From assembly GCA_050246315.1 (NCBI GenBank), contig JBFWWG010000004.1, forward strand, positions 128,001 to 192,000: a stretch of DNA of 64,000 nucleotides, read 5' to 3'. This DNA is from Nitrospiraceae bacterium. Lineage in GTDB: Bacteria > Nitrospirota > Nitrospiria > Nitrospirales > Nitrospiraceae. A program made the position numbers and the translations under genes. Positions 9,580-63,649 of this stretch are shown here, piece by piece. The notes beneath the pieces were generated by a model. The model searched no databases. It saw only the letters and a list, made by a program, of their open reading frames with translations, and was not told the DNA's origin. Numbering within the stretch: the first letter of the stretch is position 1; every line of letters starts with the position of its first letter.

Positions 9580-9596
9580 GTTCCGGCTTCCTCCAG

Positions 9597-9950
9597 CTAG
9601 CTGAGACGATCGAGTTGCCTCCCCACCGATCGGCCGTCGACCAGGGTCGATGAAAATGATTTCCACCGAGACCGCGCGGCCGCCGCCTCCACCAACAATT
9701 GGTGCAGGGCGGCTTTCGCCACGAGGGCGCGCGCCATAATGGTCTCGTCCATGGCCAGGAGCGCACAGGCCAGGTTCGGCATCACATGGTTATGTTTGAA
9801 CCACGTGCGACGCGCGTCATAACAAGCCGAGACTCGGTCCCAGTCTCCTCGCTCGGCGGCTTCCAGCGCCTCGACTGTGAGACGGCCGATCCCGTCAGTC
9901 CACGCCCCTGGTGTCGGAAAGTTATTCGGTTCGGGCATGAATGGCCGCAC
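9597..9950 (-). CDS. FliT-like helical chaperone (hypothetical)
   Basis: Position after fliS, AERGDWDRV..YDARR pattern and all-helical composition. Start uncertain. Confidence 0.55.
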   Translation of the reverse strand: MRPFMPEPNNFPTPGAWTDGIGRLTVEALEAAERGDWDRVSACYDARRTWFKHNHVMPNLACALLAMDETIMARALVAKAALHQLLVEAAAARSRWKSFSSTLVDGRSVGRQLDRLS

Positions 9951-17305: not shown

Positions 17306-17308
17306 GTC

Positions 17309-21500: not shown

Positions 21501-22695
21501 GGAGCGCCTCTTCGTAGAGCGGAGTGCCAGGATAGGGTGTAATAATCGTCACGCCGATCGTATCGGGCTGATACCGTTGGATCAGGTCGTAGGTGGCGAC
21601 AATGGATTCGCGCGTTTCTTTAGGCAGCCCCACGATCAACAGGAAATGCAGGCGAATCCCCAGACGCCGGGCCTTGTCGCGCACGTGGGCCAATCGCGGC
21701 ACGGTGAGTCCCTTCTTGCCCTCCCGGTGATGCATCACGGCTTCGTCGCCGGTTTCCACGCCGATCAGGATGCCGACGCAGCCTGCGGCGCGCATCTTTT
21801 CCATCAGCCCGTCGCTGAGGCAATCCACACGGGTTTCGCACATCCAATCCAACGTCCAACCCGCCCTCACGATCAGATCGCAGAGACGCTCAATCCGTTC
21901 CTGGTTGAGTGTGAAGGTCGCGTCGCGGAAATAGAGTTTGGTGATGCCCTGCCGCTCGACGATTTCCTTGATCTCGGCTGCGATGCGTTCGGGACTTTGC
22001 GACCGCCACTTCACACCCTCGACCAGCGGATAGGGACAGAAATAGCCGCAGGGATAGGGACAGCCCCGGCTCGTCTGGAGCGTGGCAACCGGCGATCCAA
22101 GCAGTGGATAGACGTACTGCTGGTTTGGCAGCAGATCCCTCGCAGGAAAGGGAAGGCGATTCAAATCAGTAACCGGCTCGCCTTCTTCGAAACGGAGGCT
22201 CGTGCTATCCGAGCCGTCGTCCTGCCCCAGCCAGGCGCACCCTTTCCTCGACCGCCCTGCGGCCAAGTCCACGATCGACAGGTCCGCTTCTCCGTGGATC
22301 ACGAGATCGGCACCGCTCCGCCCGAGCAATGCCTCAAGCGTGCGGTGGTCGCGAATCAAGGTCTTGGCAAACACCTTGGCATCGGGATGCCGTCGGCGCA
22401 GCTCAGCGAGGAACGCCGCATCGGCATCAAGAGTCGGCAAGGCGACGGTGGCCAACAGGACATCCCATGTCCGGCCCTCCAGCCGCCGATAGACGCCGGC
22501 CTCGTCCAGGCGCAGTGGATCAGCGTCGATTAGTTCTACCGATTCCCCGACTTGGCGCAAGGAGGATGCCATCGTCGCCAGATCAAGCGGCGGCAACAAC
22601 AGGTGGTCGCCGCCATCGAACCCCAATCCACCAGCCATACTCCGGCTGACGGGCCGACGCGCCAAGGACGGGCTGTTGATCAACACGATGTGCAT
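18505..22695 (-). CDS. Fusion: B12-binding radical SAM + GT2 + GT2 + TPR repeats (1396 aa)
   Basis: PPLDLA B12-domain start, RGCPYPCGYFC and TPYPGTPLY. Two GT2 domains (SVVIPTYNR..VDDGSTD; SIIMPVFN..VDDGSTD..FLNND..FEDVDLC). C-terminal TPR-like helices. Confidence 0.9.
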   Translation of the reverse strand: MHIVLINSPSLARRPVSRSMAGGLGFDGGDHLLLPPLDLATMASSLRQVGESVELIDADPLRLDEAGVYRRLEGRTWDVLLATVALPTLDADAAFLAELRRRHPDAKVFAKTLIRDHRTLEALLGRSGADLVIHGEADLSIVDLAAGRSRKGCAWLGQDDGSDSTSLRFEEGEPVTDLNRLPFPARDLLPNQQYVYPLLGSPVATLQTSRGCPYPCGYFCPYPLVEGVKWRSQSPERIAAEIKEIVERQGITKLYFRDATFTLNQERIERLCDLIVRAGWTLDWMCETRVDCLSDGLMEKMRAAGCVGILIGVETGDEAVMHHREGKKGLTVPRLAHVRDKARRLGIRLHFLLIVGLPKETRESIVATYDLIQRYQPDTIGVTIITPYPGTPLYEEALRKGWIDSMRWGDYGGHQVPMHTPQLSREDLITGKQFLEEGFAILQRRLGEGPSPLVEHVTAQHYDQVLRWAYRLDPVVEAIRDAEAAQSGIAGISRTEAWNARASSDLDHEQLRSAPELSVVIPTYNRQVIVRKTLLGFASQTFSPDRFEVLLVDDGSTDDTASMIRCMKLPFALRVVTRPHGGANAARNEGIRAAQGHVVVITGDDMIPEPGFLEAHATFHRKHPVESEAMLGFIDWSPEITVTPFMKFIVSPEGGQQFAYHLVKNGKVDFRLFYTSNLSLKRSFLHRQTTLFDPDFLYPAFDDVELGYRLANQGMQIHFNPLAVTRHHHEITPESFVERQRKAGQMAVLLAGKHPVLNELMLRLDEVPRDSGSSTSSRDRIALLLSVLKEVEKPTVSRMAALRIQDMGFDHYYARTVLYPLYQALLTSAFQEGVRLGSQQKEPIQQALQVQPPPMTSSANRHDVSIIMPVFNQVNLTRQCLSALAAVTHGVEYEVIVVDDGSTDETQEFLTSLGGDVQIVRNDANSGFAKSCNRGAATARGRYLVFLNNDTIPLEGWLRALVDEVETHAEVAVVGSKLLYEDGTIQHAGVVFSKVMFTPYHIYRQLPGDHPVVNRRREFQCVTAACTLIRREVFEAAGGFDEGYLNSFEDVDLCLKIRERGWRVVYQPKSVLYHLESQSVGRKAHDAKNAKRLLERWGQHWWIPDEDIAYVEDGLVFRQTADGEIMRTRLDPLTDTNERRRWELVAEAQRLAQRQEREGLRSLLARVQEWPDDEWVLRWAAMVCRIVGARDLSGLFWERVLMVVDDAEAHCSLARMALEEDAVAKAEEHVSALLGLMPNHAEGWLMQAVLSMQRQEFAEAEKQFERAFRLGADAKRSQLGMGMAVVGQNQLEKAWHICRHLSVEYPDDQEVLHWLLRVGVSLGRWEPLSDDLERYIARNPSDLSARFASAGTLLRLGRVEAARKEYDTIRVLNPGFEGLDDLAKGLSAAGSLPLVA

Positions 22696-22854
22696 GAGGC
22701 CTCCATACCACGCTTGCTAAATCCGGCTCCCCTCAGATTGTTCTTGCCAGTCGGATCAAGACATCCAGTGATCATTTTATCTTTCATACCAACTTTCAAT
22801 TGATCAGTTGATCAGGCCGCATCTCGATAGTTTTCGCCAGTCAAAGAGCAGCCT

Positions 22855-24180
22855 TCACGAGCTCGTTCTCTCGGGCGACAGACCACCCAGCGTAACCAGT
22901 TGGGATTCAGGCCCGCCCTGATGGGCAAGAGATACGGCCTTGTTCAGCCACTGATAATCGACGTGCTTCACCTTGGCTTCGTTGGGCGTACGGCAGGAGC
23001 CGTTGTAGGGATCCACCATGATCAACCCTTGCAGCTCTAATTCGGCCGCCATGCCACTGCCAGGAGTAGGCGTGAAAAAGCTCGTGCTCAGGTGATCCGG
23101 CTTGATTTTCCAGACCATACGCACGGTGTCCGCAGTTTCGGATCGGCTCTCGCCCGGCGCGCCGAACATGATATTGGCCCAGACCTTGACACCGTTCTCC
23201 TTGCAGATGACTGCCGCCTTCAGATTCTCCTCGACCGTTGTTTCCTTCTCAAACAGGTCGAGGATTCTCTGACTGCCGCTCTCAAACCCGATCATCGCCC
23301 AGGCCAGACCGGTCTCGGCCATCTGGGCGACCACATCCGGATAGCGGCAGATCAGATCGGCCCGCATCTGGCAGATATAGGGTTCGGTGAATCCGGCAGC
23401 CCGGTACTGGCGGCAGAATTCGCGGGTCCAGCGGTGGTTGATGAAGAACAGATCATCGTGGGCCATCCAACTGCGAAAGTGAAAGCGATGCTTGAGCTCG
23501 CGCAGCTCACTAATGACGTTTGCCTGGCTGCGCATTTTTACCCGATTGCCAAAGACGGCGCGCTCGGCAGGCTGGCAGAAATTGCACTTGAAGGGGCAGC
23601 CTCGTCCGGCGTTCGTCGTGACGAACGGCGTGGGTAGCCGCGGGACCATGGGAGTCTGAAGTTCCCCCGTGATGTCGAAGAGATCACGGTCCACCCAGGG
23701 GATCTCATCCAGCACCGGCGGTTCGCCGACAATAACCCGGTCGACTGACTCGCCCCGCTCCAGTGTTGCGAGCAACTTGGGAAAACTGATTTCCCCTTCT
23801 TGTGTGATGATGTGATCGATCAATCGATTCGACGACACCTGTTGGAATTGGACCGTCGCATGGACCCCCCCGATCACGACGACGGCATCCTCGTGCTCCT
23901 CCTTGATAATCCGGATCGCCCGCACGGCGTCGGGATAGTGTAGGCTCCAGGAGGTGACGCCCCAGACTCTCGTCATCCTCCTCGCCACCTCCTCTCGAAA
24001 CTGTCCCCAGCCGCCGAGAGTGCGGAGGTCGATCAGGTCGACGGTATGGCCATGAGCCTTGACGGCTGCGCTAAGCGATGCCAGGCCATGGTCGATAAAA
24101 TTCGCCTCAATTGTCGGCTTCTTCTTGAAGCTGTCAAATCCCGGGAGCGCAACTCCAGGGAAGATCAGTGTGACGTGCAT
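22855..24180 (-). CDS. B12-binding radical SAM protein (class B methyltransferase-like)
   Basis: IGGVHAT, EGE, RGCPFKCNFC, GFESGSQRIL and TPTPGS motifs. Start at ATG 24180. Confidence 0.9.
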   Translation of the reverse strand: MHVTLIFPGVALPGFDSFKKKPTIEANFIDHGLASLSAAVKAHGHTVDLIDLRTLGGWGQFREEVARRMTRVWGVTSWSLHYPDAVRAIRIIKEEHEDAVVVIGGVHATVQFQQVSSNRLIDHIITQEGEISFPKLLATLERGESVDRVIVGEPPVLDEIPWVDRDLFDITGELQTPMVPRLPTPFVTTNAGRGCPFKCNFCQPAERAVFGNRVKMRSQANVISELRELKHRFHFRSWMAHDDLFFINHRWTREFCRQYRAAGFTEPYICQMRADLICRYPDVVAQMAETGLAWAMIGFESGSQRILDLFEKETTVEENLKAAVICKENGVKVWANIMFGAPGESRSETADTVRMVWKIKPDHLSTSFFTPTPGSGMAAELELQGLIMVDPYNGSCRTPNEAKVKHVDYQWLNKAVSLAHQGGPESQLVTLGGLSPERTSS

Positions 24181-25247
24181 GATTGGAGTCCTCGCTGCCG
24201 AACCGAACGAAGCAGTGAAGCCAGCCGGCCTGCCTCGTGGTACCACTGGAGTGTGGCGGCCAGGCCACGGCGGAGCGACCATCGGCCGTAGAACCCGATC
24301 TCCCGCTTGAGTTTGTCATTGTCATAGAGACGGTGACAGCGGTCCGCCTCGCCCATCAACAGATAGGCAAAATCTGGCGCAACCGGCGCATGTGCCGAGT
24401 CGTCCGACAGCCCGGCCAAACGGGTGGCCAGCAGATCTCGCTGGCCCAGCAAGGCAGTGAGGTGATCGAGGTACTCTTCAACGGAAACCGGTGCGTCACC
24501 CGTCAGGTTATATAACCCGGTCAGTCGTGCCTCGACTGATCTCCAGACGCCCTCTACCAGATCGTCCACATAGAGCGGCTGGAAACGCCGGTGCCTGAGT
24601 CGAGGCCAGATCGGGTGGAAGGAGGTCACGCCCAACAGCGTCATCAAGGATGATTCCAACATCCATGCGCTGCCGGGCCCATAGATATTGCCGATTCTCA
24701 AGACGAGAGCCTCCCGCCCAGGTTGCTTTCCCCAGACGGTGACCAAATCTTCGGCTGCCTGTTTCGATCGCCCGTAGGCCGACACTGGACGACAGGGGAC
24801 TTCCTCCTTGAGCGGACCCTGTTGATCGGAGGTCAAGCCTTGCGCTTCGATGCTGCTCGCATAGACGAAATACGGCACACCGAGCGCCGTGGCGAGATCG
24901 AGCGCCCGCTGCGACCCATTCACATTGCTAGTCTGGAGCGTCGAAGCATGCAAGGCGGTCTCGGCCGCAAAGTGCACCATGAAATCCGGCCGGCCGAGCT
25001 TGGCCAGGTGGGCTGTCTTGGATGGATCGATTGGATCAATCGGATCATCCGGACTCCCGAGATCGCAGGAAACGATCAGCGCCCCTCGGGATGACAGATC
25101 TCTGGCCGATGGTGTCTCGGTCCGTCTGGCCAACACGGTCACGCGAGAACCGGCGTCCAACAACTTGCGAGCCAGGTGCGAGCCCAAGAATCCCGTGCCG
25201 CCCGTCAGAAGGACATTCCATGGTTTCTGTCGCCGGATTGGCTCCAT
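24165..25247 (-). CDS. NAD-dependent epimerase/dehydratase (extended SDR)
   Basis: TGGTGFLG, YGRSK (YxxxK) and LRIGNIYGP. Confidence 0.9.
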   Translation of the reverse strand: MEPIRRQKPWNVLLTGGTGFLGSHLARKLLDAGSRVTVLARRTETPSARDLSSRGALIVSCDLGSPDDPIDPIDPSKTAHLAKLGRPDFMVHFAAETALHASTLQTSNVNGSQRALDLATALGVPYFVYASSIEAQGLTSDQQGPLKEEVPCRPVSAYGRSKQAAEDLVTVWGKQPGREALVLRIGNIYGPGSAWMLESSLMTLLGVTSFHPIWPRLRHRRFQPLYVDDLVEGVWRSVEARLTGLYNLTGDAPVSVEEYLDHLTALLGQRDLLATRLAGLSDDSAHAPVAPDFAYLLMGEADRCHRLYDNDKLKREIGFYGRWSLRRGLAATLQWYHEAGRLASLLRSVRQRGLQSCTSH

Positions 25248-25457: not shown

Positions 25458-26849
25458 CTACGCTGCCGCTTCGAGCACGGCGTTCGGCATCACACCAAGC
25501 CGGCCTGCGTCGAGCACCTCCGTGATGCGCTTGATGGGCTTCGTGGCCTGCATCGAGAGATCCAGCGTCTGGGGCGCCACGTTCGGACCCGCAGTCGATT
25601 CCCGGATAACGACCACGACCGGGTTCAAGGTCTGCGCCTGATTCATCCGCGAGACAATGGCGACTTCGCCGGTGTTGAGCTGAACACACGACCCCACGGG
25701 ATAGATGCCGATGCACCGGATCAATCGTTCCACAAAGGCCGCATCCAACAGACCTCGGCGCGTCATGTCATAGAGCATCTGGAGCGCGTGATGCGGGGTC
25801 ACAGCTTTTCGATACGGGCGATCGCTTGTCAGTGCATCGTAGACATCCACAACCCCGGCGATCATCCCGAATTCCGAAAGCTGATGCCGCTTCCTGCCAT
25901 AGGGATACCCCGAGCCGTCAAGACGTTCATGATGTTCCAGAACGGGAAGCAGGACCGGTGGTTCGACCCTCACCGTTTCGCTCAAGTATTCAGCCCCCTG
26001 CTCCACATGTCGTTTCACCTGCGCAAAATCGTCCTCCTCCAATCGGCCGGCTCGATTTAGCACCTCAACGGGCAACTGCATTTTCCCGATGTCATGCAGC
26101 AACATGCCGAACGCGAGTCGCTGGAGGTCGTCGCGATTCATGCGCAGATTCCGGCCCACGGCCAAGGCCAGGACACACGTGTTGACCGAATGGTAATAGG
26201 TGTACTCGTCGAAACTCTTCAGTCGTACCAAGCTCGTCAGCGCGTCCGGATTTCGAAGGACACTCCCGACCAGCACATCCACAGCCGTGACCACGGCCTC
26301 GGAATTGAAGGCGCGTCCCATCTTCGCATCGGCCATAGCCTGCTGAACCATCTGCTTTGTTTGTTGATAGCCGGCCTTCGCAACCTCCAGTTCCTGTTCA
26401 AACGGGCTGGGTGTCAGATCGAACGCCTCGCCTGGTCGAACGGCAATTGTTGCCTCCGGGTCGGAGTCGGTGACGGCGGCAGCACCAGCTCTACCAGGAG
26501 ATACAACGGATCCTGCGACTGTCATCGTTCTCCCAGAGGCAGGCGGCGATGCCGGTCCGTTCCAGTGAGCACGTTGCGAAACCGGGTTATTCGATTGGGT
26601 TTCAATGGGAATACCCTGCGACTCATCGCATTGTGGCACAGCCTCTGGCGACGAAGCGGCCTTCTTGTCCTCGGTTCCTTCGATTTCAATTTCGACGATT
26701 TTGACTCCGCAGGCCCTGACCATCTCCACATCCGCCTGTGTCGTCATTCTCATTCGATGGGAAACAAATGGGGTGGCATACCATGGCTTGTCCAGACTCG
26801 TGACCAACATACCGACTGACAGTTTCGTAACAGGGATTTTTGTCCTCAT
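25458..26849 (-). CDS. HD-GYP c-di-GMP phosphodiesterase with a DUF3391-like N-terminus
   Basis: LLHDIGK, HHERLDGSGYPYG and DVYDALTSDRPYR; N-terminus KIPVTKLSVGM...W..PF. Confidence 0.92.
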   Translation of the reverse strand: MRTKIPVTKLSVGMLVTSLDKPWYATPFVSHRMRMTTQADVEMVRACGVKIVEIEIEGTEDKKAASSPEAVPQCDESQGIPIETQSNNPVSQRAHWNGPASPPASGRTMTVAGSVVSPGRAGAAAVTDSDPEATIAVRPGEAFDLTPSPFEQELEVAKAGYQQTKQMVQQAMADAKMGRAFNSEAVVTAVDVLVGSVLRNPDALTSLVRLKSFDEYTYYHSVNTCVLALAVGRNLRMNRDDLQRLAFGMLLHDIGKMQLPVEVLNRAGRLEEDDFAQVKRHVEQGAEYLSETVRVEPPVLLPVLEHHERLDGSGYPYGRKRHQLSEFGMIAGVVDVYDALTSDRPYRKAVTPHHALQMLYDMTRRGLLDAAFVERLIRCIGIYPVGSCVQLNTGEVAIVSRMNQAQTLNPVVVVIRESTAGPNVAPQTLDLSMQATKPIKRITEVLDAGRLGVMPNAVLEAAA

Positions 26850-36392: not shown

Positions 36393-36408
36393 AGCAACCC
36401 ATGTGCCA
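36393..36408 (-). promoter_or_regulatory. sigma54 promoter for flgF-flgG-flgA-flgH-flgI
   Basis: TGGCAC-ATGGG-TTGCT, a consensus -24/-12 element. Confidence 0.9.
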
Positions 36409-45198: not shown

Positions 45199-45570
45199 TT
45201 ATCCGAGCTTTTGCACACGTTCGACCGGGCTGACCACGTCGGTCAGACGGACGCCGAACTTTTCGTTGACCACGACCACTTCGCCGCGGGCCACCAAGCG
45301 ATGATTCACGAGCACCTCCAACGGCTCGCCCGCCAGCTTGTCCAACTCCACAACGGACCCCTGCCCCAACTGGAGGAGTTCCCGAATCACCATGCGGGTC
45401 GTGCCCAACTGCACCGACACCTGCATGGGGATATCCAACAACACATCCAGATTCTTTGCCCCTGCCAGCGGTTTTGCCTCTTGCGGTGGAATCGTCGCCG
45501 GTTGCCCAGCCGCCTCCGCCCCTGCTCCCGCTCCACCCATCGTCGCCTGACTGGATTCACTTCCATTCAT
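45199..45570 (-). CDS. fliN: C-ring protein FliN
   Basis: LLDIP..VSV.LG...LGQGSVVELDKLAGEPL...ARGEVVVV. Confidence 0.95.
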   Translation of the reverse strand: MNGSESSQATMGGAGAGAEAAGQPATIPPQEAKPLAGAKNLDVLLDIPMQVSVQLGTTRMVIRELLQLGQGSVVELDKLAGEPLEVLVNHRLVARGEVVVVNEKFGVRLTDVVSPVERVQKLG

Positions 45571-50732: not shown

Positions 50733-50886
50733 TGCACGCTCCGATCACCGCCTCCCGCCAAATCAACGCCTTCTGCCGAGTCACCCCATCCTCGTCCGGC
50801 AACCCCGGCAATTCTTTCCTCACAGGCGGGGCAGTTTTCTCCTCCCGCGAGGCAGAGATGAACCGCTGTTAATCGGCATCAACCGG

Positions 50887-50914
50887 TCAAGTCCGCCATC
50901 CAAGCTGCCGATAG
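50887..50914 (+). promoter_or_regulatory. sigma28 promoter of the decayed che operon
   Basis: TCAAGTCC-N12-GCCGATAG. Confidence 0.8.
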
Positions 50915-51029
50915 TGCGGTGATCACGAGGCCCAAGCGGTGTCGATCCGTCGCGTCTTGCCGCTGGCGGCACGGCCTGTGTCTTGCTATTTCGAATCGCT
51001 CCTCGGAAGGAACCAGAGGAGGAGCCCCT

Positions 51030-51410
51030 ATGCCAGTCGAGCCGAACATGAAGATTCTGGTCGTAGACGACATGTCCACCATGCGCCGCATCACCAAGAA
51101 CTTTCTGAAGCAACTGGGGTTCAACAACGCCGAGGAAGCGGAGAACGGACAGGACGGCCTCGCCAAGCTGCGCGCTGAGAGCTATGGGTTTGTCGTCTCG
51201 GACTGAAACATGCCCGTCATGACCGGCATTGAAATGCTGCGGGCGATCCGGGCGGATGAGAAATTGAAAACGCTCCCCGTTCTGATGGTCACGGCCGAAT
51301 CCCAAAGGGACAATATCGGCGAGGCCACGCAGGCGGGAGTCAGCAATTATGTCGTCAAGCCCTTCACGGCCGGGACCCTGCAAGACAAGATGAACAAGAT
51401 CTTCCAGTGA
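51030..51410 (+). pseudogene. cheY: cheY with an in-frame nonsense codon
   Basis: [15 protein letters not shown]...[29 protein letters not shown] at 51204-51206 replaces the conserved Trp (DWNMP). RBS GAGGAGGAG. Confidence 0.9.
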
Positions 51411-51465
51411 GACGCAGGGCTAGTCCATCCGCGACAGCCCTGCCCAGACCGACGTGGAGGCTCCG

Positions 51466-52026
51466 GTGAGCGATCAGAATCGGAAATGGTATGAAGAACT
51501 GGGCGACCTGGCCCGTTATATCGAACAGACGATGCACGGCTTTCAGAACCTGCAACAGCCGATCGAGGCGGCATCGCACCAGCTCCCCCAGGCGACAGCA
51601 CACCTGTCGGACCTCCCCAAAATGAGCGAGGAGGCCACCCACAACGTGATGGGGCAAACCGAGGCCATTCAAGACAATCACGGCCGCCTGCTGGCAGCCT
51701 TGAACGGCGTCCTCGCCAGCCTGAGCCACGCCGGCATCGGCGGGCCGCTTTTGGACGACTTGGAGGCTATGCGACAACTGTTGAACGACGACGAGAAGCG
51801 GCTGATCGAAATCTTCACCGCCCTGTCGTTTCAGGATCTCCTGGCCCAGCGCGTCAATAAATTGGTGACCGTGCTGACTGATGTCGAACACAAGCTGCTG
51901 GAACTGCTCGTGATTTTCGAATCGCAACACTCCAATGGCCAACAAGGCGACCAGGACAAGACCGGCGACATGCTGAAGCGGCTGGAGACCTCCAAGACCA
52001 CTACCCTCAAACAGAACCTCGTAGAC
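51466..52026 (+). pseudogene. cheZ: cheZ-like phosphatase gene, 3'-truncated
   Basis: EEAT..VM and LSFQDL.AQR.NK motifs. Ends at KQNLVD without the terminal LL..LGF helix and runs into out-of-frame MCP sequence. Confidence 0.75.
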
Positions 52027-52042
52027 ACTGGAGGAAGAGCAC

Positions 52043-52621
52043 CCGGTCACGGAAGCCCAGACGGTCTTGAGCGCCGTCGCCCAAGGCGATCTCACGCAGC
52101 ACATGACCGGGACCTATCAGGGCGAATTGGACAAATTGAAAGTCAGTGCCAATACCGCGATCACGACCCTGCTGACCACGCTCACCACGGTCAGAGCGGC
52201 CGCCGAGAGTGTCAGCACCGGCGCCGAGCAGATCACCCGCGGCAATGAGGACCATTCCCAGCGGACAGCCGAGTAGACCAGCGCCTTGGAGGAAACCTCC
52301 GCCTCCATGCACGAGATGACCTCCACAGTGAAACAGAACGCGGACAATGCCAAACAGGCCAATCAGTCGGCCATCGCCGCCTGCGTCATCGCCGACAAGG
52401 AGGGGTGCCATCACCACCCGAGCCGTCAGCGCCATCGAGGAGATCAACAAGAGCAGCAAGAAGATCGCCGACATCATCACGGTGATCGACGAGATCGCCT
52501 TCCAGACCAACCTCCTGGCCTTGAACGCGGCAGTGGAGGCAGCCGAGCCGGAGAGCGCCGCCGCGGGTTTGCGGTCGTGGCGACGGAAGTGCGAAATCTC
52601 GCGCAGCGGTCGGCCACTACG
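52043..52621 (+). pseudogene. Methyl-accepting chemotaxis protein internal fragment
   Basis: HAMP (AQGDLT) followed by SQRTAE*TSALEETSASM (TAG 52274-52276), [19 protein letters not shown] and [17 protein letters not shown], with frameshifts near 52403 and 52545. Confidence 0.9.
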
Positions 52622-52909
52622 CGCGACCCGATCGCCGGCGTGGGTGGAAAGATCTATGAGAGGGCCATGGACGTTGGAGCCAACAACACTCGATGGGTCC
52701 TGGATTTCATGAGGCAGGAGGGCTTCGTCCCGGCGAAGATGGACCTCGGCGACGTACACCCCCACAAGGTGTACTTCTTCGCCCAGACCGGCCGGCTGCT
52801 GGTGAAGAAGATCGAACGGATCAAGAACGACACGATCTTCGCGCGCGAGGCGGAGCATCGGAAGCAACTGCAACGCGAGACGGAAGCGAGCGATGTCACG
52901 CTCTTCTGA
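52622..52909 (+). pseudogene. cheD: cheD fragment with 5' and internal deletions
   Basis: RDPIAGVGG is joined directly to [13 protein letters not shown]...DLGDVHPHKVYFF..TG.L.VK...DVTLF. The LGSC and NHF catalytic segments are absent. Confidence 0.8.
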
Positions 52910-52945
52910 TCTCCAAACGGGCGGTCGATCAAGAAGCGAGGGCAC

Positions 52946-52993
52946 ATGGGGAAGATTCGCACCTTGATCGTCGATGACTCGCCCAAGAAATAG
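52946..52993 (+). pseudogene. cheB: First codons of a cheB-like receiver gene
   Basis: MGKIRTLIVDDS then PKK*, in the position expected after cheD. Confidence 0.6.
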
Positions 52994-53014
52994 CGACCCG
53001 CCGAGCATGCCATG

Positions 53015-53788
53015 TCATCGAGTGGCCTTGATCGAGGCAGCGGGAATCGGTTGCGACGCTGGCGCATTGACAATTTGCTCGGTCAACTTTGCGGCTTTGT
53101 CCGGCCTGACCTGCGCCAATATGGCGCCCGCAGTCTTGCTCTTCACGGTCCGCAACACCTGCACGGCCATTGGAGACGGCATCTTCTCGATCCTGGCTGC
53201 CGCCTCTTCGGCCGGCATCCCTTCATACATCTTGGCAACGACGCCCAGTTTTGCCTGAGCCTCGGCCGCCTGCTGATCGCGAGTCTTGTTCTCCCGTTCC
53301 TGGTTCGTCTGTTGAGCCTGGCCCTGCTTCGTCTCGAAGGCCTGGACCGACGCTTCATAGCGTACTAACAGCTCCTCAAGGTCGGCCTTCAGATTTTCAA
53401 GCCGTTTCAGTTCGGCTCGCATTGCTTGCTCCCGGCGGTCCAGATAGCGTTTTCGTTGATCCAAGAGATCGAGCACCTCGCGGGGTACATCCACAGCCGG
53501 CCCCTGTACTCGTCGATCCTGGAGATCACTCTCTTTCGTCCCCACTTGTCCGCTCACCGGCATCCTGTCATCCGACGCGCTTGCGGGCGGCGACTTATCC
53601 GGTGACTCCGAAGCCGTCTCCGCCAAGCCGGCTGAGTCCGCCCCGATGCTCTGGACCGTGACTGCCAGGCAAGGCCCACTCGCGGCCAGGACGGACCAGA
53701 GGATCAATCGAACAACTCTCGTTCGGTTCGTCGGGCTACAGATCGGTGTCCCTCCCGGATCCCGTATCACGTGGCGCCCCTCATCCAC
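53015..53788 (-). CDS. MotE/FlbB-like flagellar protein (TM + coiled coil + MgtE-N-like domain)
   Basis: AKMYEGMPAEEAAARIEKM...AGAILAQV.P.KAAKLT; directly after fliJ. Confidence 0.8.
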   Translation of the reverse strand: MDEGRHVIRDPGGTPICSPTNRTRVVRLILWSVLAASGPCLAVTVQSIGADSAGLAETASESPDKSPPASASDDRMPVSGQVGTKESDLQDRRVQGPAVDVPREVLDLLDQRKRYLDRREQAMRAELKRLENLKADLEELLVRYEASVQAFETKQGQAQQTNQERENKTRDQQAAEAQAKLGVVAKMYEGMPAEEAAARIEKMPSPMAVQVLRTVKSKTAGAILAQVRPDKAAKLTEQIVNAPASQPIPAASIKATR

Positions 53789-54198
53789 CGTCGCCCAGCG
53801 AGGTCGTCAAGTAGCCGTTGGTCGAGTCGTCGCTGAGCCTGCTGCCTTCGATTGGCCGCCCGCTTCATCACCAACTCGATCTTCTTTCGGTCTCGGACCG
53901 CCTCCGTCAGCTCCACTTGCTTTTTTGCGCGTCGCTCCATCGCCGAAGCCACCGCCCGCTCGACGTTGGTCACGGTCGCCTGAATCGCATCCCATTCGTT
54001 TACCCAACCCTGCGCGAGTCCCGCATGAGCCCCTCGTCGGACTTCCGTCACGAAGCGGTCCGCACTGTCATCCGCGATCTGTTGCCATTGCACGCGGACC
54101 TCGTTGACCTTCTGCACGGCCCGATCCAACTCCGCCAGCTCCATCCGCACGACTTCCTCGACCTGGACCCGGTATCGGTATAGTCGCAGCCAGCTCAT
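53767..54198 (-). CDS. fliJ: Export protein FliJ
   Basis: Coiled coil after fliI, L.EA.RDRKKIE...DQRLLDDLA. Confidence 0.85.
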   Translation of the reverse strand: MSWLRLYRYRVQVEEVVRMELAELDRAVQKVNEVRVQWQQIADDSADRFVTEVRRGAHAGLAQGWVNEWDAIQATVTNVERAVASAMERRAKKQVELTEAVRDRKKIELVMKRAANRRQQAQRRLDQRLLDDLAGRRWMRGAT

Positions 54199-55502
54199 CC
54201 CGGCTGTCCCGCCAATTGGATCAACGCCTCGACCGAGGCGGGAAAGCTGGCGCATTCGTCCTTCTCCTGCTTCAGATAGGCATGGATGGCCTCGATCATG
54301 CCGACGGCGCGGTCCAGTTTGGGATTCACGCCAGGTTTGTAGGCCCCCAGGGTGATCAGGTCTTCCGCTCGCTGATAGGTGGCCATCAATTCGACAACAG
54401 CGCGGGCCGCCGCATCATGCGCCGGCGTGATGATCCCGTGCATGACCCGGCTCGTGCTTTGAAGGACGTCAATAGCCGGATAGTGGTTCCGGGAGGCCAA
54501 ATCGCGGGATAGTACGATATGGCCGTCAAGGATGGAGCGAGCCGAGTCGGCGATCGGGTCGCTCAGATCGTCCCCCTCGACAAGGATCGTATAGAGGCCG
54601 GTCAGGGTTCCGCTGCCTTCACAGGTGCCGACACGCTCCAGCAGTCTCGGAAGCAGGGAGAACACGGAGGGCGTGTAGCCCTTACTGGTCGGCGGTTCCC
54701 CGATCGCCAGCCCGACCTCCCGCTGACCCTGGGCGAACCTCGTAAGAGAATCCATGAGCAACAGCACGTGCCGGCCTTGATCCCGAAAGTATTCGGCGAT
54801 AGCGGTCGCCAGGAAGGCTCCGCGAATCCGTACCAGCGGAGGTTGGTCGGACGTTGCGGCGATGACCACCGTGCGTTGCATACCGCCCGGACGGAGATCG
54901 CGCTCGAGAAATTCCTTCACCTCGCGCCCGCGCTCGCCGATCAGCGCAATCACGCTGACGTCCGCCACGACGTTCCGACTCAGCATCCCTAACAAAATGC
55001 TCTTCCCCACGCCGGCGCCGGCGAAGATGCCGATCTTCTGTCCCAGGCCGCAGGTCAGGAGTCCATTGATCGCCCGCACCCCAAGATCGAGCGGCTGAGT
55101 GATGCGCCGGCGATGGAGTGGATTGAGCGGCGCCTGATACAAGGGATACTCGCCCTCCGCCTCGATTGGTCCCTTTTCATCAAGCGGGTGTCCCAGGCCG
55201 TCCAACACACGGCCGAGCAGTTTGGGTCCGACCGTGACGGACGCTTGACGCCCCTTGGTCATTAAGCGACTGGCCGGACCGATGCCGTGCATGTCGCCCA
55301 ACGGCATAAGCATGATACGATCGCCGCGGAACCCGACCACTTCGGCCGTCAGCGGCGCCGAGCCGTCGTCGCGGGTGACTTCACACAACTCCCCGATGGT
55401 CGTGGCCGTCCCGTATCCTTCGAGGACAATCCCGGCTGCCTGGGCTATCCGCCCCTGCACCGTCAAGGGATCAAGCCCCTCAAGCAGGTCGATCCGCTTC
55501 AC
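54195..55502 (-). CDS. fliI: Export ATPase FliI
   Basis: AGAGVGKS, LIGERGREV, MDSLTRFA and GYTPSVF. GTG 55502 overlaps the fliH stop. Confidence 0.96.
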   Translation of the reverse strand: MKRIDLLEGLDPLTVQGRIAQAAGIVLEGYGTATTIGELCEVTRDDGSAPLTAEVVGFRGDRIMLMPLGDMHGIGPASRLMTKGRQASVTVGPKLLGRVLDGLGHPLDEKGPIEAEGEYPLYQAPLNPLHRRRITQPLDLGVRAINGLLTCGLGQKIGIFAGAGVGKSILLGMLSRNVVADVSVIALIGERGREVKEFLERDLRPGGMQRTVVIAATSDQPPLVRIRGAFLATAIAEYFRDQGRHVLLLMDSLTRFAQGQREVGLAIGEPPTSKGYTPSVFSLLPRLLERVGTCEGSGTLTGLYTILVEGDDLSDPIADSARSILDGHIVLSRDLASRNHYPAIDVLQSTSRVMHGIITPAHDAAARAVVELMATYQRAEDLITLGAYKPGVNPKLDRAVGMIEAIHAYLKQEKDECASFPASVEALIQLAGQPG

Positions 55503-56638
55503 GTGGTCTGCCCCTTCCTCAGGACCTCTGCCATCCTCGCCAATTGTCCGTCCAGCGTCGCATCGACACAATGAGTCGGCGTCTGGACCAGACAGCCGCC
55601 TGGCACAATGGCGGCATCGGTCTCCAACCGGATCGTCACAGGTCCGTCGCAGACAGCGGTCAACCGGTCGTGCACCGCTTCCAGCGTGGGCAGATCCCGA
55701 GGATGCATCAGTATCCGGATGACCGGACTCTCTCGAACCCGCAGCACGGCCTGCCTGGCCTGCTCGACGATCAGGTCCCGCTTCTCCGCAGCACAGTCGT
55801 GCACCACCTTGCAGGCGACCGTAAAGGCCAGCTCAACCGCTTCTGATTCGATCCGACCGGGTATTTCCGCACAGGCCTGGGCCAACCGGCGGACGGTTTC
55901 CACCAGGTACTGCTCCTGCTGCTTCGCCAGCGCGATTTGCGCCTCCGCGCGGCGCAGCCCTTCCGCCAAACCTCGTTCGTACTCTTGCGCGCGGCTTGAA
56001 GTCGCTCCCTGGGACTCGGTCCGGATCGCGTCTCCCCGCTCGTTCAGATCTGTCAGGCGGAAGGCGTTCAGGTGCACCCCTTGCATTTTGCACACCGTCT
56101 GCTTCAAGACCCGGTTCTCCTGACGGAGCCGTTGCACCTCGAGTACGCGCCGCACCGCCATGAGCACGTCGTTCGGTTTGAACGGTTTGGTAAGCATATC
56201 GGCTGCGCCCACTCTCATGGCTTTCACCGCCAACTCGACCGTGCCATGTCCGGTAACCATGATCGCAACCGCCTTGGGGTCTTGCCGAGTCACCTGTTCG
56301 AGCAGGGAAAGCCCGTCCATGTCGGGCAATCGGTAGTCCACCAGCAGAACGGAGGCCGGATGATCGGCGAGCGCTCGAAGGCCCGCCTGTCCGGTTTCAA
56401 CGGATCGCACGGCAAATCCGTTCTGCGTCAACAGCCGGGTCAGGAGCGTTCGAACGCCCTCCTCATCCTCGATGACAAGGACCTGCGTCGGCCCACCGCT
56501 CCAAGGTTGGGGTTCCTCCTGAGAGGCCGGTCCGCCGCCGGAGCGGAACGTTGAGAAGGAATCCTGTCGTCCGGATGAAGCCGTTACCATCTGTTCGCCT
56601 ACCTGATGCTTGTCGGCCGTTGTACCATCGGGAGTCAC
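55499..56638 (-). CDS. fliH: FliH fused to an N-terminal response-regulator receiver domain
   Basis: Receiver: VLVIEDE..VDYRLPDMDG..MVTGHG..LTKPF. FliH: EYERGLAEG..ELAFTVACKVV..MHPRD..GGCLVQT...VDAT. Located between fliG and fliI. Confidence 0.9.
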   Translation of the reverse strand: MTPDGTTADKHQVGEQMVTASSGRQDSFSTFRSGGGPASQEEPQPWSGGPTQVLVIEDEEGVRTLLTRLLTQNGFAVRSVETGQAGLRALADHPASVLLVDYRLPDMDGLSLLEQVTRQDPKAVAIMVTGHGTVELAVKAMRVGAADMLTKPFKPNDVLMAVRRVLEVQRLRQENRVLKQTVCKMQGVHLNAFRLTDLNERGDAIRTESQGATSSRAQEYERGLAEGLRRAEAQIALAKQQEQYLVETVRRLAQACAEIPGRIESEAVELAFTVACKVVHDCAAEKRDLIVEQARQAVLRVRESPVIRILMHPRDLPTLEAVHDRLTAVCDGPVTIRLETDAAIVPGGCLVQTPTHCVDATLDGQLARMAEVLRKGQTT

Positions 56639-57630
56639 ACCATAGCCTCGGCGCCCGCGCCTCCCACGACGATCTTGCCTTCCTCCTCCAATCTGCGGAC
56701 CGTCTGAAGGATCTTCTGCTGCGCCCGTTCGATGTCCGTCACCTTCGCCGGCCCCTTCGCTTCCATGTCTTCCCTGAGGCCCTCGGCCGCTCGGCTCGAC
56801 ATGTTCTTGAAGATCTTGTCCTTGATCGCATGACTAGCGGCACGGAGGGCGAGCGTCAGCTCTTCCTTCCCCACTTCTTTCAGCAATTCCTGAATGCCGC
56901 GATCATCGATCTTGATCAAGTCGTCAAACACGAACATGAGGGACCGGATCGTATCAGCCAGCGCGGCATCTCGTTCGGCCAGCTTGGCCATGATGGTCCC
57001 CCCGTTGGTCTTGTCCAACCGGTTGAGGATATCGGCTGTGACCTTCGTGCCGCCGATACTCATGGATTGCGGGCGGGAGCGATCTTGCAAGACTTCCTCC
57101 AACACGTCGCTCAAGTGTTGCAACATATCGGGCTGAACCTCGTCCATCGTCGCCAATCGATGCAGCGTGTCGCTCCGCAATCCCTCCGGCAGTAGCGCGA
57201 TGACCTGGCTTGCCTGTTCCGGGTCCAGATGAGCCAAGACCACCGCGATCGTCTGGGGATGTTCGACCCGTAGCAGAGTGGCCACCGTCTTGGCGTCCAG
57301 CCATTTCAGCGTGTCGATGCCCGGATAGGTTTCCGTGGTCAACGAACGCATCAACTGCGTGGCCTTCCCGGTGCCCAACGCCTTGTCCAGTACGGTCTTC
57401 ACATATTTCCTGCCCTCGACGCCGATCTCGCCGCCGGAGGCGGCCGCCTTGAAGTCCTGAATCACCTCATGCTCCTGCTCCTTGGAAATCGAAGACAGAG
57501 CTGCGAGGTGGGCGCCGAGCTTGCGAATTTCCGTGGGAGACAGATGCTTCATCACGGCAGCGGCGGCATCTTCTCCAATGGTCAACAGCAGAATCGCGGC
57601 CTTTTGCTCACCCGTGAGCCGGTTCGTCAT
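56635..57630 (-). CDS. fliG: Rotor protein FliG
   Basis: KAAILLL.IGE, EHPQTIA, MFVFDD and NMSSRA motifs. Confidence 0.96.
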   Translation of the reverse strand: MTNRLTGEQKAAILLLTIGEDAAAAVMKHLSPTEIRKLGAHLAALSSISKEQEHEVIQDFKAAASGGEIGVEGRKYVKTVLDKALGTGKATQLMRSLTTETYPGIDTLKWLDAKTVATLLRVEHPQTIAVVLAHLDPEQASQVIALLPEGLRSDTLHRLATMDEVQPDMLQHLSDVLEEVLQDRSRPQSMSIGGTKVTADILNRLDKTNGGTIMAKLAERDAALADTIRSLMFVFDDLIKIDDRGIQELLKEVGKEELTLALRAASHAIKDKIFKNMSSRAAEGLREDMEAKGPAKVTDIERAQQKILQTVRRLEEEGKIVVGGAGAEAMV

Positions 57631-60929: not shown

Positions 60930-62369
60930 CTACCCCCCGCCATATGGCCAGTCGCGCATAGATGGTCTCCCGATCGTGAGCTCCCGATACTCACGCAGCT
61001 TGTTACGCAGCGTCCTGACACTGATCCCCAATTCCTTGGCCGCCTTGGTCCGATTCTGATTCACACGGGCCAACGTGCCGACGATCAGCTCCCGTTCCAT
61101 GTCGCGAAGGGACCCTGTGGAGGGCACCTCTGTCCGACCTATGGGCTGAAGGGCCGTTGCCTGAGCCTGGGTGTCTGGGAGGCTCGGTTCGACCGGGAGG
61201 TGCATCGGATCGATCACTCCATTCCCGGTCAGCAGCACCGCCCGCTCGACTGCATTCTCAAGCTCGCGGATATTGCCTTTCCATGTCCGCTTGGCCAGTT
61301 CCTCCGCCGCCGCTTCGGACAACAACGGCACGGGGACCCCGTTGCGCGCTGCCGCCTGGTGGACAAAATGCCTGGCCAGCACGGCTATGTCGGCACGCCG
61401 TTCCCGCAACGGCGGCAATGTCACGGGAAACACATTCAAACGGTAGTACAGGTCCTCCCGGAACCGTCCCTGCTCGACCTCACGATGCAACGGACGATTC
61501 GTCGTTGCGATGACGCGGATGTTGATCGAGACAGGAGCAATCCCGCCGATACGATCCACCTCCCGTTCCTGCAACACCCGCAACAACTTCGCTTGAAGCG
61601 GTAGGGCCATCTCGCTGATTTCGTCCAACAGGATGGTACCCTGATGAGCCAGCTCGAACTTGCCAAGCTTCCGGACCATCGCCCCAGTAAAGGCGCCCCG
61701 TTCATGGCCGAACAGCTCGCTTTCCAACAACCCGTCCGGCAGCGCGGCGCAGTTCACCGCCACAAATGGCCGCTGCGCCCGAGGGCTGCGGCTGTGGATG
61801 AACCGAGCCAACAATTCCTTACCGGTTCCACTCTCCCCCGCGATGAGAATCGTCGCCTGCGAGAGCGCCACACTCTCCACTTGATTCAATAGTCGACGCA
61901 TCGCCGGATCGTCGGTCAGAATAGGGCGCGCGGGCGTCATCTGGGTGGTGTCCGCCACTGTCATCTCGAGGCCTGCTCCCGGAAGCCCCGACACGACTCG
62001 CTCCAACACGTCCGTCGCAAAGGGCTTCAGCAAGAAATCGCTCGCTCCCAGCTTGATCGCCTCGACTGCCGTTTCCACGGAACCGAAGGCGGTCATCACC
62101 ACGACGTGCGTCTGCGGTGTTCTCCGTTTGATCTCCCGCACCAGGGCAATGCCGCCCAGCCTCGGCATCTTCATATCAGTCAGCACCAACCAGGGCTTGG
62201 CGTCGGCCAACCGGTCCAACGCATCGCGGCCGTCGACGGCTTGGAACACCAAATAGCCTCTCCGTCGCAAAGATTCCGTCAGTGCGGTCCGCATGGCCGG
62301 CTCATCGTCCACAACCAGGACGGTCCGCAGCGGTGCGAGCGCAGTGTCCTCGACCGACCCCGTCAACAT
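60930..62369 (-). CDS. sigma54-dependent response regulator (REC-AAA+-Fis HTH), FleR/FlgR-like
   Basis: VVDDE..TDMKMP, GESGTGKE, GAFTGA, LDEISE and AAKELGISVRTLRNKL. Confidence 0.95.
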   Translation of the reverse strand: MLTGSVEDTALAPLRTVLVVDDEPAMRTALTESLRRRGYLVFQAVDGRDALDRLADAKPWLVLTDMKMPRLGGIALVREIKRRTPQTHVVVMTAFGSVETAVEAIKLGASDFLLKPFATDVLERVVSGLPGAGLEMTVADTTQMTPARPILTDDPAMRRLLNQVESVALSQATILIAGESGTGKELLARFIHSRSPRAQRPFVAVNCAALPDGLLESELFGHERGAFTGAMVRKLGKFELAHQGTILLDEISEMALPLQAKLLRVLQEREVDRIGGIAPVSINIRVIATTNRPLHREVEQGRFREDLYYRLNVFPVTLPPLRERRADIAVLARHFVHQAAARNGVPVPLLSEAAAEELAKRTWKGNIRELENAVERAVLLTGNGVIDPMHLPVEPSLPDTQAQATALQPIGRTEVPSTGSLRDMERELIVGTLARVNQNRTKAAKELGISVRTLRNKLREYRELTIGRPSMRDWPYGGG

Positions 62370-63649
62370 GTGCGCGACTCCTGCCGTTCGTCGACTTGTC
62401 TCATCCTGCGACGAGCCTGCACACTCAGCGCCCGATTGTCCTGCGGCAGCACGACCGTCACAACCGTCCCCCGATTCAATTCGCTCTCGACATCCACTCG
62501 TCCCTCATGCCCCTCCACCAGGGCATGCACGATGGCCAGTCCCAGACCGGTGCCATCCTCGCGGGTCGTGAAGAACGGATCAAACATCCGAGACAGGTGC
62601 GCGGGCTCGATGCCTGTCCCCGTGTCCCTGACCGCAAGGTGAACCACCGGCTGATCCTGCAATGAACGGCGCTGCTCGCTCGCCGCGATTGTCACACGCC
62701 CGCCATCGGGCATCGCCTCCACGGCGTTCAGAATCAGATTCACGAGCACCTGACGCATCTGCATCCCGTCACACCACAGATTCGGCGGCGCCTTGTCCAG
62801 ATCGACCTCCATCGTCACGCGAGACCGGTTGAGGGCATGCGCCGCCAATGTCAGCGAATCGCTCACAAGCCCGTCGACTGCATGCCATGCCTTCTTCGGC
62901 TTCGCCGGTCTGGTATAGGTCAAGAGATTGGACAGCAATCGATCCATCGCTTGCACCGCGAGAGAGATATGCTCCGTGTAGGAGCGCAAGGTTGGGTCCT
63001 GCTCCAAATCCTGCCGCAACATCGATGCAAACAACTCGACGCTTCCCAGCGGGTTGCGAATCTCATGCGCGATGCGTCCGACCATCTCTCCCATTGATGC
63101 CAGACGATCCCGTCGGTGCAGCCGTTCCTCCAGCCGATGCAGGTCCGTGATATCGTGCAACAGAATCACCGTCCCCACCGCCTGTCCTCCGTCCCGATGG
63201 GCCAAGGTCCGCGACATCGTAATCAACGCCCCCGTCTTCGTGACCAAGGGGTAGTGCGTCGGACACGGCCAGGGCGGCTGATGCACCTCAAGCCCCTGCT
63301 CCTTCAGGAACGACTGTAATTCATGCCCGAGAATATTCTCCGTCCCGATACCCAACAACAGAGCAGTCGCCCGATTACAACGATGAATTCTTCCCTGCTG
63401 ATCTGCGACCAGCACGCCGGTGGACAACGACTCCAGGATGGCCTGGAGTTCGCTGCATACGGCTTCGTTCTTGAGCAGGTTGAGACGGAGCGCCTCGTTT
63501 CGGTCGGCCAGTTCAAGATCCAATTGCTCGACCTTGACCTGGAGCGCCCGATAGGACTGTTCCAGCGCCGCGGTGGCCGCTCCGAAACTACGGAACGCCT
63601 CTCGAAGCAGCTCAGCTCCGACCGGCTCTGTCGAGACCGCCTGATCCAT
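62363..63649 (-). CDS. Cytoplasmic PAS histidine kinase, FleS/FlgS-like
   Basis: IAHEIRNPL, NLILNAVEAM, DTGTGI, FDPFFTT and GTGLGL; no TM segment. Confidence 0.93.
   Translation of the reverse strand: MDQAVSTEPVGAELLREAFRSFGAATAALEQSYRALQVKVEQLDLELADRNEALRLNLLKNEAVCSELQAILESLSTGVLVADQQGRIHRCNRATALLLGIGTENILGHELQSFLKEQGLEVHQPPWPCPTHYPLVTKTGALITMSRTLAHRDGGQAVGTVILLHDITDLHRLEERLHRRDRLASMGEMVGRIAHEIRNPLGSVELFASMLRQDLEQDPTLRSYTEHISLAVQAMDRLLSNLLTYTRPAKPKKAWHAVDGLVSDSLTLAAHALNRSRVTMEVDLDKAPPNLWCDGMQMRQVLVNLILNAVEAMPDGGRVTIAASEQRRSLQDQPVVHLAVRDTGTGIEPAHLSRMFDPFFTTREDGTGLGLAIVHALVEGHEGRVDVESELNRGTVVTVVLPQDNRALSVQARRRMRQVDERQESRTC

Follow-up and report, generated by a model that had tools for sequence, protein, structure and literature searches.

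Whether a histidine kinase could act directly on the export ATPase complex of the bacterial flagellum is the question raised by a stretch of 64,000 bp from Nitrospiraceae bacterium (GenBank assembly GCA_050246315.1, contig JBFWWG010000004.1, positions 128,001-192,000 of the forward strand), hereafter called the window. In its flagellar gene cluster, the gene between fliG and fliI encodes a protein in which a response regulator receiver domain (REC) stands in front of FliH, designated REC-FliH here. Control of flagellar assembly is known from transcription hierarchies, from secretion-substrate switching and, in some species, from cyclic di-GMP (c-di-GMP); with a receiver in FliH, the export ATPase complex would in addition come under direct control by phosphorylation. 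A preliminary description of this DNA, made from the sequence alone, had read the gene as a complete NtrC-type receiver fused in frame to a FliH region, and had named a kinase encoded upstream as one candidate for its phosphorylation. Here we describe the architecture, conservation and possible function of this fusion.

One reading frame encodes a receiver and FliH

The frame of the REC-fliH gene is uninterrupted over 379 codons (Table 1) and both Pfam domains scored above their cut-offs, in agreement with an in-frame fusion. Response_reg was found at residues 53-162 (E = 5.4e-27, 94.6 bits, cut-off 30.2) and FliH (PF02108) at residues 241-368 (E = 2e-14, 54 bits, cut-off 24.1). Of the NCBIfam models, NtrX, FixJ, AtoC and NtrC matched the receiver part, and the FliH model PRK05687 matched residues 208-373 on profile positions 59-222, with 61.1 bits and thus below its equivalog cut-off of 180. 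Pfam gave no match to Sigma54_activat in REC-FliH, the output domain being FliH. Going by this domain content the protein is not an enhancer-binding protein, although its mode of action may be that of such a protein's regulatory half.

The flanking genes were likewise as previously listed (fliG at 56635-57630, fliI at 54195-55571). At both junctions the genes share a 4-nt GTGA overlap, between fliG and REC-fliH at 56635-56638 and between the REC-fliH stop and GTG 55502 of fliI at 55499-55502, a pattern suggestive of translational coupling among fliG, REC-fliH and fliI. The fliI products of relatives aligned from residue 24 of the listed fliI reading frame; the true start is probably not the listed TTG 55571, which would lie too far upstream, but GTG 55502. 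The start of REC-fliH is itself ambiguous. Met17 (ATG 56590) corresponds to the first residue of close homologues and of the ESM Atlas record, and may be the true start.

An AlphaFold2 model of REC-FliH was built on 30 family members (mean predicted local distance difference test, pLDDT, 82.5). It showed a disordered tail (residues 1-47), REC (52-155) with the five strand/helix pairs of the (beta-alpha)5 fold, a helix (155-185), a low-confidence segment (186-212), a second helix (213-285) and a head (287-378). Modelled alone, the FliH part reached a pLDDT of 90.6. By sequence this part had no significant match in the PDB, and a fold search returned chains E and F of FliH in 5B0O (E = 8.5e-6) and the V-ATPase stalk subunit E (5BW9, E = 5e-6). 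Its closest ESM Atlas clusters were stand-alone FliH proteins of 179-203 amino acids from other phyla, with FliH in 30 of 30 and REC in none of the 30; judged from these lengths, what follows the linker is therefore comparable in size to an entire short FliH.

The fusion is conserved in Nitrospirota

Among the 120 best matches listed in a search of 5.8 billion proteins, 32 (P0002-P0033, 38-99% identity) carried both Pfam domains, and the remaining matches were two fragments and 86 receiver-only proteins. Three sequences that appeared to be FliH-only or REC-only (P0034, P0035 and P0135) were truncated pieces of fused proteins, P0034 beginning inside strand 5 of REC. With the FliH part alone as query, all ten matches were fused. 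An exhaustive search of 1.84 billion representatives yielded 12 full-length clusters before receiver-only matches took over. The ESM Atlas contained four REC+FliH clusters, the three listed having 89, 154 and 53 members, and a fifth cluster in which 77% of the members had REC; all five were commonest in Nitrospirota. The databases hold many copies of REC-FliH under generic names: in NCBI they are called 'response regulator' and, for one variant, 'FliH/SctL family protein'. The named sources were Nitrospira sp., Nitrospiraceae bacterium or Nitrospirota bacterium throughout.

In addition, genomes were scanned with patterns derived from REC. At least 601 stretches matched, of which 527 were relatives and 80 were kept, five of them full length; the scan was dominated by receiver matches, and the taxonomic spread given here is a lower bound. 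The five full-length loci came from different assemblies, all of Nitrospiraceae, and were all fused and syntenic. FliG was encoded directly upstream in five of five, and fliI lay directly downstream in the four that reach far enough. In the three loci with enough flank the kinase, the sigma-54 regulator, flgB, flgC, fliE and fliF were also present upstream. The preliminary description had proposed a search for this domain architecture and its spread, and had named absence from relatives as one outcome that would speak against its reading; instead, the fusion recurred in 32 clusters and in 5/5 loci, every named source belonging to Nitrospirota.

A receiver tree was built from 122 segments, comprising 28 of the family, four FleR orthologues and 90 of the 156 other matches (66 were left out). 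The family receivers formed one group (Shimodaira-Hasegawa-like approximate likelihood ratio test, 98), which also held the fragment P0135 and the long-branched P0046, the placement of the latter two being unsure. The FleR receivers formed a separate group that was not its sister. Because the family receivers form one group to which FleR is not sister, the fusion looks like a single event and, on this tree, the present neighbour regulator is not the donor of the receiver. An origin of REC as a recent copy of the neighbouring FleR-like receiver was ruled out by the 38% identity between the two and by this separate, non-sister clade. As far as these comparisons go, the fusion is real and old.

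The receiver and linker resemble those of NtrC1 and DctD

The residues expected of a complete NtrC-type receiver, as it had been described, are all present in the window protein: the acidic pair E57-D58, D101 in LLVDYRLPD, T129 in VTGHG and K151 in TKPF. In an alignment of 30 members D101, T129, K151 and P152 were invariant (30/30) and D58 was at least 90% conserved. The full set of five residues (E/D, D, D, T, K) was intact in 32 of 35 homologues, and by sequence the receiver is phosphorylation-competent. The three exceptions were P0123, with Ser in place of Thr, P0029, with Gly at the second acidic site, and P0128, in which the pocket is fully degenerate. P0128, from a Nitrospiraceae metagenome-assembled genome and named 'FliH/SctL family protein' by NCBI, has Gly at the phospho-Asp site and Val at the Lys site. 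The core of its linker is decayed, and a two-Trp tail, the F-x-L-D motif behind the linker and the FliH part are kept. It constitutes a natural 'pseudo-receiver' control.

By sequence and by fold, the best solved relatives of the receiver were Aquifex NtrC1 (1ZY2, 1NY5 and 4L4U; E = 1e-25), DctD and NtrX, whereas CheY-like proteins matched more weakly (E about 1e-13). Identity to NtrC1 was 38% over 129 residues, and the root mean square deviation to 1ZY2 was 1.0 Å over 129 columns. These alignments extend through the linker helix, covering residues 2-130 of NtrC1 and 5-142 of DctD. The window protein has the GHG motif (G130-H131-G132), the histidine of which was found in 18 of the 30 family members. 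Few parts of the family are as conserved as the linker, with L171 and E174 in 30 of 30 sequences, R172 in 29, and N175, L178 and K179 in 28; in the model the helix 155-185 had block-mean pLDDT values of 71-92. Residues 168, 171, 175, 178 and 182 are spaced as in a 3-4 heptad repeat, in which Asn175 takes a core position. Since hydrophobic residues spaced in this way, with an Asn in the core, are the pattern of parallel dimeric coiled coils, the linker is predicted to form one.

In sigma-54 activators of the NtrC1/DctD type, phosphorylation releases a block on the assembly of the ATPase ring. In the passages of PMC10696123 that deal with this class, a long coiled-coil linker and GHG are given as the marks of its negative regulation, in which the unphosphorylated REC-linker dimer prevents ring assembly; in the same passages Pseudomonas FleR is without both. 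Classified by these marks, REC and linker of REC-FliH are of the NtrC1/DctD 'negative-regulation' type.

Candidate docking elements on both sides of the receiver

According to the preliminary description, REC occupies the end by which FliH docks in model systems. This was borne out in so far as REC lies ahead of the FliH part, but REC is itself preceded by a tail, and a conserved F-x-L-x-D motif follows the linker; the docking element may have been retained and not replaced. In the window protein the disordered tail ahead of REC measures 36-52 residues, and in the homologues it is variable (7-40 amino acids). A Trp just before REC was found in 21 of 35 homologues; Trp46 of the window protein lies six residues ahead of REC strand 1 and was present in 18 of the 30 aligned sequences.

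Behind the linker the same 30 sequences conserved G187 (26), Phe or Tyr at 193 (26), L195 (22), D197 (27) and a hydrophobic residue at 198 (30). This motif (187-201) lies inside the flexible segment, where pLDDT is low at 200-212. Its position is that at which a stand-alone short FliH would begin. The first ~10 residues of FliH bind FliN and FlhA, as stated in the part of PMC7911332 on FliH docking, and from its position and conservation the post-linker motif is a candidate for the ancestral N-terminal docking peptide of FliH. REC and linker would then have been placed ahead of a complete FliH, beside this peptide. Both the W46 tail and F193-x-L-x-D197 are accordingly treated here as candidate docking elements. 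P0128, which has lost the linker core and the phospho-site but keeps the motif, points to REC and linker acting as a single signalling unit and to a separate function of the post-linker motif.

The neighbouring kinase and sigma-54 regulator

The kinase named in the preliminary description was confirmed as a PAS-HisKA-HATPase protein. Its gene adjoins that of a sigma-54 response regulator, and the two lie ~4.3 kb upstream of REC-fliH on the same strand. No hydrophobic segment was visible in the translation of the kinase, which appears to be soluble. Cytoplasmic FlgS of Campylobacter jejuni co-precipitates with FliF/FliG and senses when the MS-ring and rotor form, according to the account of it in PMC3760246.

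The receiver of the neighbour regulator differs from that of REC-FliH, to which it is 38% identical: it is without GHG and is followed by a short, non-helical linker, and its helix alpha-1 is kept from genome to genome, that of REC-FliH being variable. In view of the low identity, the separate clade and the variable alpha-1, there is no sign of a kinase specificity shared by the two receivers. That the adjacent kinase is the phosphodonor of REC-FliH, to which only the neighbourhood points, is therefore doubtful.

Possible mechanism and alternative explanations

We consider it an even chance that REC-FliH is an NtrC1/DctD-type phospho-switch on flagellar FliH, a reading in which we infer phosphorylation, the direction of its effect, docking by the motif and the identity of the kinase. 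In this reading FliH of Nitrospiraceae, the stalk and regulator that holds FliI and links it to the C ring, would have acquired its N-terminal receiver and coiled-coil linker once. A histidine kinase would phosphorylate D101, upon which the REC-linker dimer, N-terminal in the FliH2 dimer, would rearrange as it does in NtrC1 and DctD. This could alter the availability of the F-x-L-x-D peptide, of the Trp tail or of both for docking to the C ring or FlhA; alternatively, it could alter the ability of FliH2-FliI units to assemble into a ring at the C ring and export gate. Transmission would take the form of a tethered clamp or of occlusion, and a signal would then affect, at the post-translational level, how the export ATPase complex is recruited or how active it is. 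A more specific version is possible but more tentative: the NtrC1-type 'ring-assembly brake' would have been moved from a sigma-54 activator to FliH, and phosphorylation would license C-ring docking and ring formation of FliH2-FliI, possibly through a FleS/FlgS-like kinase whose own activation would take place at the nascent basal body.

Several observations weigh against the phospho-switch. One lineage of 35 (P0128) keeps the fusion with a dead receiver, from which it follows that REC has, or can have, a role independent of phosphorylation. The aromatic switch position three residues before the pocket Lys is variable (M, I, V, L or F) and non-aromatic in many members, and in 12 of the 30 aligned sequences the GHG histidine gives way to Y, F or D. 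The segment between linker and stalk (186-212) is flexible and variable, with pLDDT values of 41-51 in the blocks of residues 191-210; this makes rigid helix-to-helix transmission unlikely in the model, and favours the clamp or occlusion named above. The docking role of the post-linker motif is argued from position and conservation only. When a FliH-part profile was run over the reading frames of the 80 kept loci, only two stand-alone FliH proteins were obtained (L063 and L058), and the N-termini of these could be compared only loosely. L063, from Acidobacteriota and the one good stand-alone FliH compared, starts with a Trp/Phe-rich acidic motif that only loosely resembles the post-linker motif. 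A complex prediction of REC-FliH residues 17-170 with FliN and the C-terminal domain of FliM scored 0.01, against a mark of 0.32, with a construct that excluded the motif 187-201; it speaks neither for binding nor against it. In favour of the phospho-switch, REC-FliH is the only FliH of the flagellar cluster in the window; no second FliH was found among the 59 window reading frames scanned, a result that covers the window only.

REC-FliH could instead be a second substrate of the adjacent kinase, a phosphate sink that tunes the phosphate reaching the sigma-54 regulator by the engagement of FliH at the basal body, so that the status of the export apparatus would be linked to transcription and export would not be gated. 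The genes for kinase and regulator are close by on the same strand in an order kept in three of three loci with enough flank, the kinase appears soluble, and FlgS of C. jejuni, as described in the account of it in PMC3760246, provides a precedent. We nevertheless regard such a sink as rather unlikely: the two receivers are only 38% identical and fall in separate clades, alpha-1 is variable in one and conserved in the other, and a sink would have no need of a conserved coiled-coil linker. Somewhat less probable again is that REC and linker are a structural module, a constitutive dimerisation or docking domain that replaces, for example, the N-terminal half of a longer FliH, with phosphorylation irrelevant or vestigial. 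REC domains commonly dimerise, the FliH part is about the size of the short stand-alone FliH proteins (clusters of 179-203 amino acids), and P0128 keeps the fusion despite its degenerate pocket. However, the five catalytic residues persist in 32 of 35 homologues with identities as low as 35%, a purifying selection that is hard to explain without phosphorylation, and in P0128 the linker core has decayed along with the pocket, as would suit one signalling unit.

Improbable, in our view, is that REC itself docks on FliM/FliN in the manner of phosphorylated CheY, possibly fed by a chemotaxis-type kinase. It occupies the FliH end turned towards the C ring in the model systems treated in the relevant part of PMC7911332, and in some homologues almost no tail precedes it (7 amino acids in P0028); but the receiver is NtrC-like (E 1e-25) far more than CheY-like (E about 1e-13), and no che genes were found among the window reading frames. 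Finally, the chance that an error of sequencing or assembly, or a frameshift, joined separate receiver and fliH genes is negligible. Such an artefact was ruled out by the uninterrupted reading frame, the 32 independent clusters and the five of five loci from different assemblies, and the apparently separate proteins P0034, P0035 and P0135 turned out to be pieces of fused ones. The NtrC1/DctD-type phospho-switch remains the reading we favour.

The flagellar cluster of the window

Essentially the whole window is a single flagellar super-cluster, encoded on the minus strand. The genes for the PAS kinase and the sigma-54 regulator, flgB, flgC, fliE, fliF and fliG lie upstream of REC-fliH. Downstream follow fliI, fliJ, an MgtE_N/FlbB-like gene, three open reading frames (ORFs) of no family, fliK, flgD, flgE, fliL, fliM, fliN, fliO, fliP, fliQ, fliR, flhB, flhA, flhF, flhG and fliA, and beyond fliA are flgH, flgI, flgK, flgL, a modification island, flaG, fliD, fliS, a PilZ gene and motAB.

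Table 1. Features of REC-FliH and of related genes in the window (residue numbers count from GTG 56638)
Feature	Position	Strand	Description
REC-FliH gene	55499..56638	-	379 codons from GTG 56638; alternative start ATG 56590 (Met17) gives 363 amino acids
N-terminal tail	56486..56638	-	residues 1-51; low complexity, predicted disordered (pLDDT <50 for 1-47)
REC	56153..56485	-	residues 52-162; E57, D58, D101 (codon 56336-56338), T129, G130-H131-G132, K151
Linker helix continuing REC alpha-5	56084..56152	-	residues 163-185; predicted core V168, L171, N175, L178, V182
Post-linker motif	56036..56080	-	residues 187-201: G187, F193, L195, D197, hydrophobic 198; flexible segment
FliH stalk helix	55784..56002	-	residues 213-285 (73 residues); opens with conserved Y-E-R-G-L-A-E-G (GxxxG) segment
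FliH C-terminal globular domain	55505..55780	-	residues 287-378; counterpart of the FliI-binding head in model FliH
fliG	56635..57630	-	directly upstream; stop overlaps REC-fliH GTG start (4 nt)
fliI, export ATPase	54195..55502	-	directly downstream; listed ORF 54195-55571
fliN	45199..45570	-	C-ring protein; FliH docking partner in model systems
Sigma-54 response regulator (REC-AAA+-HTH_8)	60930..62369	-	FleR/FlgR/FlbD-like; presumed cognate partner of the kinase
PAS-HisKA-HATPase histidine kinase	62363..63649	-	FleS/FlgS-like by context; candidate phosphodonor only

Between fliJ and fliK (50820-53788, minus strand), the three ORFs of 187, 246 and 333 amino acids had no Pfam or NCBIfam family. 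The same interval encodes a protein of 257 amino acids with weak matches to MgtE_N and to the spirochaete collar protein FlbB (E = 2.5e-7, below cut-off), and this MgtE_N-like gene was kept in all four related loci that reach that far. The region from flaG to flgL (13806-24282, minus strand) is a glycosyltransferase island (GT9, GT2), in which a protein of 1396 amino acids combining radical SAM, GT2 and tetratricopeptide repeats and a B12-binding radical SAM enzyme are also encoded; the island probably modifies flagellin.

Two genes on the minus strand encode c-di-GMP signalling parts among the flagellar genes: a PilZ-domain protein beside motAB (8974-9666), which is a possible YcgR-like brake, and an HD-GYP-like protein (HD_5 and DUF3391) inside the cluster (25458-26849). 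A LuxR-type regulator (GerE and Autoind_bind; 5914-6723, minus strand) adjoins motB and may link quorum sensing to motility.

The sigma-54 consensus occurred in the window at chance frequency (64 matches, 63.9 expected), and the promoter scan of the window found no properly spaced sigma-54 site upstream of flgB. The sole exact -24/-12 match in the window lies at 36394-36408 (minus strand), a short way downstream of fliA and ahead of the minus-strand genes that come next. In three related loci (L001-L003, positions 2-811) the C-terminal part of a second sigma-54 activator, 38-46% identical to the regulator of the window, is encoded ~2.3-2.7 kb upstream of the kinase gene; the corresponding position lies beyond the end of the window. 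This second activator may be a FleQ/FlrA-like master regulator.

Significance and comparison with known systems

REC-FliH combines a true FliH and a true receiver in a way as yet unstudied. No description of a receiver-FliH fusion was found in the open-access full-text literature searched and, to our knowledge, no receiver is known on an export-apparatus protein. If the phospho-switch is true, REC-FliH would represent a new output class for response regulators and would be the first of them with a core component of the type III secretion machine as its output. The well-understood NtrC1/DctD module makes this hypothesis directly testable, and it bears on open questions about the role of FliH at the C ring. 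Nitrospira-type nitrite oxidisers are important to the nitrogen cycle and to wastewater treatment, settings in which the switch between motile and attached life is of ecological relevance.

With FliH of Salmonella enterica (5B0O) and the FliH/SctL proteins, REC-FliH shares the Pfam FliH domain, the fold of stalk helix and head, the GxxxG segment and the position of the gene between fliG and fliI. It differs from Salmonella FliH in having ~185 additional N-terminal residues (tail, REC and coiled-coil linker), and the Trp docking motif at the extreme N-terminus of the latter, which we take to be W7 and W10, is not recognisable in it. With NtrC1 of Aquifex aeolicus and DctD of Sinorhizobium (1NY5, 1ZY2, 1QKK, 1L5Y) it has in common the receiver with linker helix, GHG and the L-x-x-E-N-x-x-L core, a module that controls assembly of an ATPase ring in the passages of PMC10696123 on this class. 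In contrast to these regulators, REC-FliH has no DNA-binding domain, a flexible segment follows its linker, and its output is FliH, the partner of a RecA-type ATPase, instead of an AAA+ domain in the same chain.

FlgS-FlgR of C. jejuni and FleS-FleR or FlrB-FlrC of polar flagellates resemble the system of the window in grouping the genes for a soluble kinase and a sigma-54 regulator with early genes of the flagellum. FlgS-FlgR, in the account given in PMC3760246, sets a precedent for the action of a flagellar kinase at the nascent basal body, but all three systems act on transcription only. A signal input on the export ATPase complex after translation has a parallel in the binding of c-di-GMP to FliI, as reported in the part of PMC4591828 on this interaction; there a second messenger acts on FliI, whereas in REC-FliH the input would be a phosphorylatable domain on FliH.

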